Virus record (IMG/VR): IMGVR_UViG_2713896779_000031
DNA from: a virus
Lineage: Duplodnaviria; Heunggongvirae; Uroviricota; Caudoviricetes
Length of the DNA stretch: 5,077 nucleotides
Direction: 5' to 3' (one strand)
Position 1 is the stretch's first letter, and each line of letters begins with the position of its first letter. Positions 1,778-4,548 of this stretch are shown here, piece after piece. The notes under the pieces were generated by a model. It had not been told where the DNA came from, ran no database searches, and worked only from the letters and a program-made list of their open reading frames with translations. The position numbers and the translations under genes are program-made.

Positions 1778-1794
1778 TCCAAGCATGAAACTAT

Positions 1795-1818
1795 TGGCCA
1801 CAATTTGTGGCCATTTTA
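1795..1818 (+). terminator. perfect 9-bp inverted repeat (TGGCCACAA-T-TTGTGGCCA) followed by TTTT; possible int terminator or operator
   Basis: Arms at 1795-1803 and 1805-1813 are exact reverse complements, followed by TTTT at 1814-1817. Lies between the int stop (1777) and the preferred start of the next gene (1836). Could equally be a dimeric protein-binding site. Confidence 0.35.
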
Positions 1819-1835
1819 CGGAGCAAGATAGAAAC

Positions 1836-3569
1836 ATGGCAAATCAAATTACCAAACTAAAAAATATAAATGTTGTGAAGTTTCGCGGACTGAAAAATAT
1901 AAACATCGAGTTTGGTTCTCGCCTAACTGTTATTTGTGGTAAAAATGGCACATCTAAATCCACAATTCTTGGCATTATCGCCCAAATATTTAGCTTTACA
2001 AAGGACTTTACCAAAAACCCTGAGACTGATTTAACACAATATAAAACATTAACAAATGGCAGCTTCAAGTCAGCTTTCAGCGAACATTTTAGGCTTTCAG
2101 AACAATTTGATGTTCCTGGTTCAATGGACGTCAAAATTAGTGTCTATGATGGTGCATCGAACAAACATCTTGAAAAACTAACATTAGGTTTATACAGCTA
2201 CAGTGACAGAGATAAATCTAGGCCTGTAGTCAGGGGAAATGATTCAATACCGGAAAAAAACCAAAGTAGAAACGTTACTCATCCTGTTATTTTTTTAAGC
2301 TTAGCACGACTTCTTCCTATTACATTAAGGACTGATTACTCAACACGGGATGTTCAGTACATCAATGAAAATTCTGATGAAATCAGAATGATGAGTAACC
2401 AACTCTTACTAAAAAACAATGGAAGCTCAGTAACAGCAACAAAAGGTACTATCGATTCAATGGTTGTCCATGGTGACAATTATGATCACCAATCAGTATC
2501 TGTTGGTGAAGATAATGTTGGACAATTAATCCAGGCAATTTTTTCATTTAAAAGACTGAAGGAAACTTATTCTGATTATCATGGCGGAATATTGTTAATT
2601 GATGAAGCCGATGCAGGTCTTTTCCCTGCGGCACAGTTAGAGCTAATTAATATTCTAACTAAAGCAGCAAAACAATACGATCTGCAAATAATCATGACCT
2701 CGCACTCCCCATTAATAATAGAGGATATCTATAATCGTTCAAAACAAGATAGTGATAGCTTTAAAACAATATATCTTACAGACACATATGGAGATATTAA
2801 AACAAAGAATAATCTTTCATGGACAGATATCCACGCTGATTTACATGTTGAAACTGTAAAAATTAATGATGACATTTGTCTTCCAAAGGCAAATGTATAT
2901 TTTGAAGACAAAGAAGGTTTCGACTTTTTCAAACAATTGATAACAGATCGAAAAATAAATAAAATATTAAATCCATTAGGGAATATAAATATTAGCTGCT
3001 CTGCCATGCTTGACTTAATGGCAAGAAAAATACCAGAATTTACAGCTAAAAGCTTGATCGTCTTAGACGGTGATGTTGTTCACGACAACAGTGCTAATGC
3101 AAAAAAAGCCAAAAAAGAAAAAAACTTATGTTTGCTTCCAAGCACCTTACCTCCAGACCAAATGATTTTTGAGTTTTTATATAATTTACCACCTGATGAT
3201 GCATATTGGGAAAATAAAAATAAATTTACAAAAGCTGTTTTTATGAAAACAGCTAAAGACATAATTGCAACGCTAAAGATTGGTAACGCTCCGATTGATT
3301 TAAAAATCCTTATAGATAATTATAAAAAAGTTAACAAAAACCATGGAGGGAGAGTTAGAAAACTGTTTAAAGATTTTGCACATACGACTCAATTTCAGGC
3401 CCAAGTCAAAGGAAGAGTTAAAGATAACCCATATCGATATTGGGTCGAGAAAAATCCTGTTCAATCGGATAGCTTCAAGAATGAACTAATAAAGAGTCTT
3501 AAAGTTATTATGATAAGTGGACATGGTGTCGATTCTGCTACCATCTCATCATATCTGTCAGATAACTAA
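1836..3569 (+). CDS. ABC/SMC-type ATPase with acidic C-terminal region; putative OLD-family-like ATP-dependent nuclease
   Basis: Walker A GKNGTSKST (1938-1964), Walker B/D-loop ILLIDEADAGL (from 2589) and H-loop-like MTSHSPLII define an ABC-type ATPase head. The C-terminal ~260 aa carry FEDKEG (2905-2919) and LDGD (3066-3074), reminiscent of TOPRIM Glu and DxD motifs; that assignment is inference. Start is ambiguous: the track starts at ATG 1785, but I prefer ATG 1836 (GGAG at 1820-1823; keeps the 1795-1813 palindrome outside the CDS). Confidence 0.85.
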   Translation: MANQITKLKNINVVKFRGLKNINIEFGSRLTVICGKNGTSKSTILGIIAQIFSFTKDFTKNPETDLTQYKTLTNGSFKSAFSEHFRLSEQFDVPGSMDVKISVYDGASNKHLEKLTLGLYSYSDRDKSRPVVRGNDSIPEKNQSRNVTHPVIFLSLARLLPITLRTDYSTRDVQYINENSDEIRMMSNQLLLKNNGSSVTATKGTIDSMVVHGDNYDHQSVSVGEDNVGQLIQAIFSFKRLKETYSDYHGGILLIDEADAGLFPAAQLELINILTKAAKQYDLQIIMTSHSPLIIEDIYNRSKQDSDSFKTIYLTDTYGDIKTKNNLSWTDIHADLHVETVKINDDICLPKANVYFEDKEGFDFFKQLITDRKINKILNPLGNINISCSAMLDLMARKIPEFTAKSLIVLDGDVVHDNSANAKKAKKEKNLCLLPSTLPPDQMIFEFLYNLPPDDAYWENKNKFTKAVFMKTAKDIIATLKIGNAPIDLKILIDNYKKVNKNHGGRVRKLFKDFAHTTQFQAQVKGRVKDNPYRYWVEKNPVQSDSFKNELIKSLKVIMISGHGVDSATISSYLSDN

Positions 3570-3580
3570 TTGATTAAAAA

Positions 3581-3614
3581 GGGTTTTATGTGATGGCCAT
3601 AAAGCCCTTTTTTT
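3581..3614 (+). terminator. rho-independent terminator between the ATPase and methyltransferase genes
   Basis: Stem GGGTTTTATG (3581-3590) pairs with CATAAAGCCC (3598-3607) with one G-U position, loop of 7 nt, followed by TTTTTTT (3608-3614). An A-run precedes the stem, so it could act bidirectionally. Confidence 0.7.
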
Positions 3615-3648
3615 GATATACTTTAGATCTGACATTTAGAGGTATCAT

Positions 3649-4548
3649 ATGCGTTTTAACACCCCACTTCGCTATCCTGGCGGTAAAGGCAAGCTTGCAA
3701 ATTTCATGCTTCGGATTATTGAAGAAAATAATCTTTCGCCTATACATTATGCCGAACCATATGCTGGGGGTGCTGGTTTAGCATTGAAACTGTTACATCT
3801 AAATGCAGCTGAAAAAATCATCCTTAATGATATTAATATTTCTGTTTATGCTTTTTGGCACAGTGTATTAAATCATGCAGATCAATTATGTTCTTTAATT
3901 GAAAGAACAGAAGTTACAATGGATGAATGGTTTAGGCAGAAAGATATAATTAATAATCCTAAAGACCATGATCTTTTAACAATTGGTTTCTCAACCTTTT
4001 TTCTCAATAGAACAAATCGTTCTGGAATATTAAAAGGTGGAGTAATTGGCGGTAAAAATCAAGAAGGGAAATGGAAGCTTGACGCTCGCTATAATAAGAG
4101 TGATTTGATTTCTCGAATCCATAAAATATCAGAAAATCGTCACAGAATAGATTTATATAACATGGATGCAATTGATTTCATTAAAAAAATAGTTATTCAA
4201 TTGCCACAAAACTCATTAACATATTTGGATCCACCTTATTACATAAAAGGTAAAGGTTTATATATCAACCATTATGATCATGATGATCATGTTAGGGTTG
4301 CAAAAGTCGTACAGAATAATATTAAAACACCTTGGATTGTTTCTTACGATAACACTCCTGAGATCCAAGCTATGTATAAGACATCATCATTAGTATATGG
4401 AATAAACTACAGTGCTCAAGATCGGTACAAAGGATCTGAGGTAATGTTCTTCAGTGAACGATTGAAAATCTTTAAAACAGATGATCCAACTAAGGTAAAA
4501 GCGCCTGTATTTAAAAGAGGATGTGTTGACGACCACATCCAGACATAA
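3649..4548 (+). CDS. Dam-family (D12 class) N6-adenine DNA methyltransferase
   Basis: 299 aa. Motifs align with E. coli Dam as I recall it: LRYPGGKGKL (Dam KWAGGKYPLL), SAM-binding EPYAGGAG (3754-3777; Dam EPFVGAGSV), FFLNRTNRSGILKGG (Dam LYLNRYGYNGLCR), catalytic DPPY (4228-4239), WIVSYDNT (Dam VLISNHDT). RBS AGAGG 6 nt before ATG 3649. Target sequence cannot be told from sequence. Confidence 0.93.
   Translation: MRFNTPLRYPGGKGKLANFMLRIIEENNLSPIHYAEPYAGGAGLALKLLHLNAAEKIILNDINISVYAFWHSVLNHADQLCSLIERTEVTMDEWFRQKDIINNPKDHDLLTIGFSTFFLNRTNRSGILKGGVIGGKNQEGKWKLDARYNKSDLISRIHKISENRHRIDLYNMDAIDFIKKIVIQLPQNSLTYLDPPYYIKGKGLYINHYDHDDHVRVAKVVQNNIKTPWIVSYDNTPEIQAMYKTSSLVYGINYSAQDRYKGSEVMFFSERLKIFKTDDPTKVKAPVFKRGCVDDHIQT

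Follow-up and report, generated by a model that had tools for sequence, protein, structure and literature searches.

An ABC ATPase and methyltransferase gene pair at the end of an ssrA-integrated lambdoid prophage, predicted to act as a methylation-coupled anti-phage module

A 5,077-nucleotide stretch of viral DNA (Caudoviricetes; IMG/VR record IMGVR_UViG_2713896779_000031), here called the window, was analyzed and found to be the right end of a lambdoid Escherichia coli prophage integrated at ssrA. Between the prophage integrase and the attachment (att) core lie two genes of the same direction, which encode an ABC ATPase with a TOPRIM-like C-terminal domain and a DNA methyltransferase (MTase). 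The two genes form one unit, and it is very probable that they are functionally coupled and have a role in defense. On balance, we also consider it probable that the pair serves as a restriction-like module against phages, coupled to methylation and carried by the prophage as cargo, in which a putative nuclease would attack DNA according to its methylation marks. The pair is widespread and unnamed; the kinds of element that it combines are already known, namely the MTase family of the PD-lambda-5 defense system, OLD-like nucleases, and restriction-modification (R-M) logic. An earlier sequence-only reading of the window had proposed a coupled R-M-like defense module that is not a named system. 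The analysis supports that proposal, and adds PD-lambda-5, which the reading had missed, as the closest named system.

Linkage of the two genes was assessed in 80 loci gathered with the ATPase as bait, one genome per species. Two of these were left out as untestable because the contig ends at the ATPase stop. An MTase homolog was close to the ATPase gene in all 78 testable loci and directly adjacent in 75, and the order was ATPase then MTase on one strand in 74 of the 78, the two genes being a median of about 45 bp apart. The linked loci come from Proteobacteria, Bacteroidota, Mycobacterium, Listeria, and Acidobacteria, so the synteny on which the earlier proposal depended is present across phyla. 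Pairwise divergences of the ATPase and the MTase were correlated (Mantel r 0.77; 0 of 2000 permutations as high), and decaying copies in Symbiopectobacterium (L003) and Listeria rocourtiae (L080) had frameshifts in both genes of each copy. Among 5426 complete E. coli genomes, the full-length ATPase was found in 84 and the MTase in 86; ST131 and strain 042 are among the roughly 1.5% of complete E. coli genomes that have the pair.

More than 400 viral contigs carry relatives of the window MTase (with either kind of partner), and the MTase family was also surveyed in IMG/VR. The best 80 loci, ranked by similarity to the window MTase, were classified by partner, which was an ABC ATPase in 50, a protein matching the PD-lambda-5 effector model PD-Lambda-5_A in 19, and neither in 11 (5 of these 11 were cut by contig ends). 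About 69 of the 75 testable loci in this set have a partner of either kind. The ABC-ATPase partners belong to several subfamilies, some of them distant. In Streptococcus phage Javan645, a distant 579-aa ABC-ATPase partner (25% identity, E 5e-30) is located beside an integrase.

Both predicted open reading frames (ORFs) of the earlier reading were present, at 1785-3569 and 3649-4548, and all of the motifs that it had named (Walker A, Walker B/D-loop, H-loop, FEDKEG, LDGD, EPYAGGAG, and DPPY) were found in place. In DNA this rich in AT, ORFs as long as 577 and 299 codons that also match family-specific hidden Markov models (HMMs) are far beyond chance. The longest ORF of the ATPase gene (+ strand, 594 aa) begins at 1785, and the reading had placed the gene start there. 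The ABC ATPase assignment stands, and the start is probably at 1836 instead (MANQITKL..., 577 aa), as judged from the RefSeq annotation and the N-termini of aligned homologs in other genera. Residue numbers refer to the 577-aa form.

Pfam AAA_15, AAA_21, AAA_23, and SMC_N matched the ATPase at residues 1-315 only. Full-length homologs at 42-88% identity were found in Enterobacteria, Pseudomonas, Acinetobacter, many Betaproteobacteria, Bacteroidota, Mycobacterium, Listeria, and one acidobacterium, and their alignment revealed many invariant Arg, His, and Asn residues in the ATPase insert. An AlphaFold2 model of the protein was confident, with a predicted local distance difference test score (pLDDT) of 86.9. 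The best matches of this full-length model in the Protein Data Bank (PDB), determined by using Foldseek, were Ts OLD from Thermus (6p74), GajA of Gabija, and the retron Eco8 OLD (E 3e-12 to 2e-9, over 540-810 alignment columns with gaps included). From sequence and model, the protein is best read as an OLD-like ABC ATPase joined to a putative TOPRIM-like nuclease domain, and is a candidate rather than an established member of the OLD family.

The C-terminal domain (residues 338-577) was modeled alone with a pLDDT of 92.5, its alpha/beta core of four strands leading into a helical bundle. Across 45 diverse C-terminal domains (alignment A3), the sole invariant polar residues were E357, D358, D411, and D413, and in alignment and model the arrangement of these candidate catalytic residues matches that in TOPRIM domains, a Glu together with a DxD. 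The best specific structural neighbors of the domain were OLD, AriB, and retron TOPRIM domains. The isolated model had no significant Foldseek match in the PDB, and neither the last 244-274 residues of the protein nor the 45 diverse domains had a TOPRIM, DUF4435, or OLD match in Pfam. When family profiles were compared with P2 Old by using hhalign, the Walker B region was matched only, or nothing. A profile of the 45 domains searched against all PDB sequences yielded only a weak match to the RecA C-terminal domain, which is probably due to chance. This match falls in the C-terminal helical sub-domain (window positions about 3330-3500) and had an E value of 0.69 for the single copy. With 194 representative clusters out of 1.84 billion proteins, this family of domains is a small one. 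Taken together, the motifs and the weak fold matches point weakly to a TOPRIM domain. The earlier suggestion of a TOPRIM/OLD-like C-terminal region is weakly supported by the invariant E and DxD set, the confident domain model with its neighbors, and the OLD-like full-length fold, and was not reproduced by the isolated-domain Foldseek and profile searches.

The second gene encodes an alpha-class (D12) DNA amino-methyltransferase. PADLOC model PD-Lambda-5_B (PDLC04018) matched it at 5.8e-124 over protein residues 1-282 and profile positions 1-283 of 291, and MTase_II, the REBASE-derived Type II MTase model of PADLOC, matched it at 3.4e-107. E. coli O121 has a bona fide PD-lambda-5 locus whose MTase shares 53% identity with the window MTase and whose partner protein matches PD-Lambda-5_A at 4e-74. 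The sequence-only reading had called the enzyme an unmistakable Dam-family adenine MTase. The D12 class was right, and Dam orthology and the certainty of adenine were not upheld. With NCBIfam TIGR00571 (dam) the enzyme scored 55.1 bits against a cut-off of 114.85; in a phmmer search of the PDB at E <= 10, M.CbeI, an N4-cytosine MTase, was the sole match and no Dam structure was matched. A redundant Dam (GATC) copy was rejected on these two results, and by its sequence the MTase is not a Dam ortholog. The base that it modifies could be adenine (as N6-methyladenine, m6A) or cytosine (as N4-methylcytosine, m4C). The mid-region FFLNRTNRSGIL..GGVIGGK.Q.G is nearly invariant in 83 MTases, including PD-lambda-5-type and Gram-positive phage copies, and is the counterpart of the DNA-contacting hairpin in Dam-type enzymes. 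The REBASE entry M.Eco1886ORF14565P (type II, motif undetermined) may correspond to the window MTase.

Membership of the MTase in the PD-Lambda-5_B family makes PD-lambda-5, with another effector, the nearest named system. PD-lambda-5 was obtained by functional selection from ECOR7 and consists of two genes, a ParB/HEPN protein and a methyltransferase (Vassallo et al. 2022, Nat Microbiol). It is experimentally validated and gives broad protection that is strongest against T-even phages; its cloning required an mrr deletion host, and its authors termed it a compacted prophage 'RM+Abi' system. The anti-phage activity and the incompatibility of the methylation with Mrr are known from the ECOR7 system alone. 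The window pair shares with it the MTase family, the two-gene layout, carriage on prophages, and the near-invariant MTase mid-region. The effectors are unrelated, a ParB/HEPN protein of about 465 aa (PD-Lambda-5_A) in PD-lambda-5 versus a 577-aa ABC ATPase with a TOPRIM-like domain here. Genuine PD-lambda-5 partners match PD-Lambda-5_A at 4e-74 to 4e-90, and this model was absent from the 25 best PADLOC matches of the window ATPase. The two-component PADLOC definition of PD-lambda-5, which needs PD-Lambda-5_A, would not call the window locus.

The published OLD classes comprise solitary proteins (class 1; P2 Old, Ts OLD), proteins linked to a UvrD-like helicase (class 2; GajA), retron proteins (class 3; Eco8), and PARIS AriA/AriB (class 4). 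The window ATPase resembles them in having an N-terminal ABC ATPase followed by a C-terminal domain with a predicted TOPRIM-like topology and with E and DxD residues, and resembles P2 Old in being phage- or prophage-borne. It differs in that its C-terminal domain has no sequence-level match to TOPRIM/OLD profiles or to P2 Old, and in that its constant MTase partner is absent from the contexts of all four classes. HEC-04 is a single-gene ABC-ATPase/TOPRIM defense protein that depends on its Walker A and E/DxD residues (Payne et al. 2024, preprint). Its fusion of ABC ATPase and TOPRIM with an E/DxD site parallels the predicted architecture of the window protein, and it has a similar embedding in Hma-type loci, but it acts alone without a methyltransferase, and its HMM similarity to the window ATPase is weak and partial (E 2e-16).

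Searches with PADLOC and NCBIfam models matched the ATPase to PtuA, AriA, GajA, NsnB, HEC-04, and MAD3 partially, all below threshold, and PADLOC-DB v2.0.0 holds no model specific to the window ATPase. The best PADLOC matches of the ATPase head were PtuA, AriA, and GajA (partial, E 1e-14 to 1e-20), and NCBIfam PtuA scored 65 bits against a cut-off of 500. Gabija, Septu, and PARIS were rejected since the window has no helicase, HNH, or separate TOPRIM gene (no GajB, PtuB, or AriB). Retron effectors, Menshen, and MADS were likewise rejected, as only partial similarity to the ATPase head was found and the cognate partners are absent.

Type II and III R-M systems are resembled in that a putative nuclease gene is directly followed by a DNA amino-methyltransferase gene and the whole is mobile cargo of low G+C content. 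The window MTase has the features by which Type II R-M methyltransferases are recognized (motif I, motif IV, and the MethyltransfD12 and MTase_II matches). The pair departs from R-M systems in that the putative nuclease is an ABC ATPase with a TOPRIM-like fold, and in that conservation, instead of hypervariability, marks both the target-recognition region of the MTase and the insert of the ATPase. To our knowledge, a TOPRIM-like fold with an ABC ATPase is not among the characterized restriction endonucleases (PD-(D/E)XK, HNH, GIY-YIG, PLD, and half-pipe). Literature searches on the pairing, on the protein accessions, and on OLD plus methyltransferase found no description of it; Krishnan et al. 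2020 (ABC ATPases) was outside their coverage. Two possible precedents for OLD plus methyltransferase were set aside, PluTI because it neighbors an OLD and helicase pair, and Pseudomonas aeruginosa PA1939 because it is independent of PA2735.

In the window, the integrase stop at 1777 is the left border of the cargo slot and the 33-base att core forms the right border of the prophage; the two ORFs fill the span between them, with 33.3% G+C compared to 44.6% for the integrase gene. The att core that the earlier reading had proposed is real, being the 3' end of ssrA (transfer-messenger RNA, tmRNA) according to Rfam and to E. coli matches annotated as ssrA, and its last base (4653) is the end point of most E. 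coli matches to the window. The cargo in the slot between integrase and attR varies, with the integrase found in 395 E. coli genomes and the ATPase-MTase pair in 84. Sister prophages carry DarT/DarG-like genes in this slot in ECONIH4 (L095, 5703-7019), an AAA ATPase and RloB pair in O121 WL1277 (L094, 5888-7839), and unrelated hypothetical genes in CFT073 and an ST131 strain (L092, L093). The int-att slot of ssrA-integrating lambdoid prophages is a defense hotspot. In the early region of the same prophage in strain 042 (L002, 4496-5149), a second, unrelated 'phage N-6-adenine-methyltransferase' is annotated, and this element therefore encodes two DNA methyltransferases.

Elsewhere, the pair was found as cargo of an integrative and conjugative element (ICE) between conjugation genes in one strain, at the icd/intE end of another prophage in a second strain, and terminally in phiNP, an inducible phage of Citrobacter rodentium. 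About 14-16 loci have the pair embedded with a DrmD/HmaA-like SNF2 helicase on one side and a type III-like MTase on the other (DISARM/Hma-like). One such locus from a Flavobacteriales metagenome-assembled genome (L028, 2906-12268) has the SNF2 helicase (DrmD/HmaA-like), the pair, HEC-01A and HEC-01B, and the type III-like methyltransferase in one string, and two different ABC-ATPase/TOPRIM modules are therefore embedded in a single DISARM/Hma-like locus. Embedding in loci of this kind was the criterion that led Payne et al. 2024 (preprint) to HEC-01 to HEC-09.

In the mechanism that we favor, the MTase would mark host and prophage DNA at a short motif, as m6A or m4C. This motif is probably common to the whole MTase family, because the DNA-contact-like region of the enzyme is nearly invariant. 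The ABC ATPase head would bind and hydrolyze ATP, presumably as a dimer on DNA, and would control a two-metal nuclease in the TOPRIM-like C-terminal domain that relies on E357/D358 and D411/D413. The nuclease would attack unmarked DNA of an incoming phage or plasmid, and the MTase would prevent self-attack. The system would then be a sibling of PD-lambda-5, with the same MTase family and the ParB/HEPN effector exchanged for an ABC-ATPase/TOPRIM effector. Restriction logic is best supported by the fact that the ATPase never occurs without the MTase in testable loci, together with the R-then-M operon layout. Several observations weigh against it. Characterized OLD nucleases are mostly sequence-nonspecific, and no separate DNA-recognition domain was identified in the window pair. 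In Diaphorobacter aerolatus (L059), the MTase N-terminus is apparently frameshifted while the ATPase is intact, which may be an exception or an error in sequencing. The nearest relative that is validated, PD-lambda-5, is described as 'RM+Abi' and not as classical restriction, and works best on T-even phages.

The conserved MTase mid-region and ATPase insert are unusual for R-M systems and suggest one specificity for the whole family. A bolder version of the favored mechanism, offered tentatively and held to be doubtful, is that the MTase is a self-marking hub of fixed specificity that forms a complex with swappable NTPase-nuclease effectors and supplies their recognition of the DNA target. Effectors would include several OLD-like ABC-ATPase/TOPRIM subfamilies or ParB/HEPN (PD-lambda-5), in a modular class similar to Type III. 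If true, this would explain why unrelated effectors go with one near-invariant MTase family and why neither partner has a hypervariable recognition region, and would make a TOPRIM nuclease the restriction arm.

The main rival, which we regard as possible but rather unlikely, is a guard or abortive-infection ('RM+Abi') system, in which the ATPase/TOPRIM protein would be a sensor-effector and not a methylation-sensitive restriction enzyme. Phage cues (for example, anti-restriction proteins, DNA mimics, or RecBCD inhibitors) or loss of methylation would trigger it, and degradation of DNA or RNA would then kill or arrest the cell, with the MTase chiefly a safety device akin to an antitoxin, or else a first line of modification. 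In PARIS, Gabija, and P2 Old, the known triggers are phage anti-defense proteins and not unmodified DNA, and the ATPase head has its best PADLOC matches in components of such systems and of Septu (AriA, GajA, PtuA). The C-terminal domain also resembles AriB, a tRNA-cleaving TOPRIM, and the PD-lambda-5 phenotype and its 'RM+Abi' description likewise fit a guard. Left unexplained is the constant presence of the MTase beside the ATPase in 78 loci, unless the MTase is an obligatory antitoxin; moreover, no phage-sensing domain was identified in the pair, and its strict R-then-M layout is typical of R-M systems. An addiction module that stabilizes the prophage or ICE by post-segregational killing, with defense secondary, appears improbable. 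Here, loss of the element would dilute methylation and a long-lived nuclease would kill the segregant. Type II R-M systems are established to behave as addiction modules, and the pair rides at the very ends of mobile elements (int/att in three unrelated temperate phage lineages, plus the ICE). Nevertheless, the same slot carries the bona fide defense systems DarTG and AAA+RloB, the pair is also located inside chromosomal DISARM/Hma-like defense loci, and addiction and defense can coexist. Least probable by far is the alternative raised by the earlier reading, that a solitary OLD-like nuclease and an orphan phage MTase used for anti-restriction or replication are adjacent only by accident of the hotspot. 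Prophage orphan D12 methyltransferases are common, one more MTase is annotated in the strain 042 prophage, and a terminator-like hairpin and promoter-like site separate the two genes in the window. Independent cargo is effectively excluded because adjacency is conserved across phyla and element types, divergence is correlated, and the MTase family is partnered in most testable viral loci; joint decay of both genes in degraded copies and an MTase score below the Dam family cut-off also contradict it.

If the restriction-like module works as proposed, OLD nucleases would gain a fifth genomic context, linkage to a methyltransferase, and a TOPRIM nuclease would join the short list of restriction folds. 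PD-lambda-5, which is validated and mechanistically opaque, becomes one branch of a larger set built on one MTase family, and among the sampled viral contigs, ranked by similarity to the window MTase, the ATPase branch is commoner than the PD-Lambda-5_A branch. As PADLOC-DB v2.0.0 lacks an ATPase-specific model, a PADLOC scan would probably miss the pair, which may therefore be an unrecognized barrier to phage therapy and gene transfer. With only two genes, the pair is easy to test.

Table 1. Coordinates of the features identified in the window
Feature	Position	Strand	Basis
Tyrosine integrase of ssrA-integrating lambdoid prophage	611-1777	+	Pfam Arm-DNA-bind_2 5e-23, Phage_integrase 3.4e-16; RefSeq: site-specific integrase
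577-aa ABC ATPase with TOPRIM-like C-terminal domain, OLD-like architecture (probable start)	1836-3569	+	Pfam, AlphaFold2 model, Foldseek, homologs
Walker A GKNGTSKS (K41)	1938-1961	+	Invariant in 20 diverse homologs
Signature-like SVGEDNVGQ	2499-2525	+	Invariant column set, alignment A1
Walker B/D-loop ILLIDEADAGL (D256, E257)	2589-2621	+	Invariant columns, alignment A1
H-loop TSHSP	2697-2711	+	Invariant column set, alignment A1
NVYFEDKEG, E357/D358 at end of first C-terminal-domain strand (candidate TOPRIM Glu)	2892-2918	+	Alignment A3, model
VLDGDV, D411 and D413 at end of third strand (candidate TOPRIM DxD metal-binding motif)	3060-3077	+	Alignment A3, model
Conserved LPPDQ, 3' of VLDGDV	3147-3161	+	Motif coordinates
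Hairpin and T-run, terminator-like, between ATPase and MTase genes	3576-3612	+	RNA fold -17 kcal/mol, z -3.9 vs shuffles
Promoter-like TGGCCA-17-TATACT with TG extension, just upstream of MTase start, overlapping the hairpin	3594-3622	+	Consensus scan
299-aa alpha-class (D12) DNA amino-methyltransferase, PD-Lambda-5_B family	3649-4548	+	Pfam MethyltransfD12 1.8e-19
MTase motif I EPYAGGAG	3754-3777	+	Sequence motif
MTase near-invariant DNA-contact-like segment FFLNRTNRSG	3997-4026	+	Conservation profile
MTase motif IV DPPYY	4228-4242	+	Sequence motif
att core, duplicated 3' end of ssrA (tmRNA), CGGACTCGGGTTCAACTCCCGCCAGCTCCACCA	4621-4653	+	Rfam tmRNA partial match 4551-4653, E 3.8e-7

The hairpin between the two genes (Table 1) is specific to the copies in enterobacteria; in others, about 45 bp separate the genes. 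Together with the promoter-like site, the hairpin could permit expression of the MTase separately from the ATPase, as predicted from the sequence. The number of promoter-like sites in this region was not above the shuffled expectation in the consensus scan.

The order of genes in the window is a yfdR-like gene and small early genes, an excisionase-like ORF, the integrase, the two cargo genes, the ssrA copy, and a second ssrA-associated element. The small ORF at 432-650 overlaps the integrase start by 40 bases, corresponds to a 207-bp gene in RefSeq, and has a counterpart annotated as xis in phage phiNP; it had no Pfam match and is a probable excisionase. Past the att core (4654-5077), the window enters the second ssrA-associated element, in which a DinI-like gene begins at 4925. 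An in-frame TGA is apparent in this gene near 5009 when translated by eye. Two terminator-like hairpins are located on the minus strand at 4743-4771 and 4780-4799.

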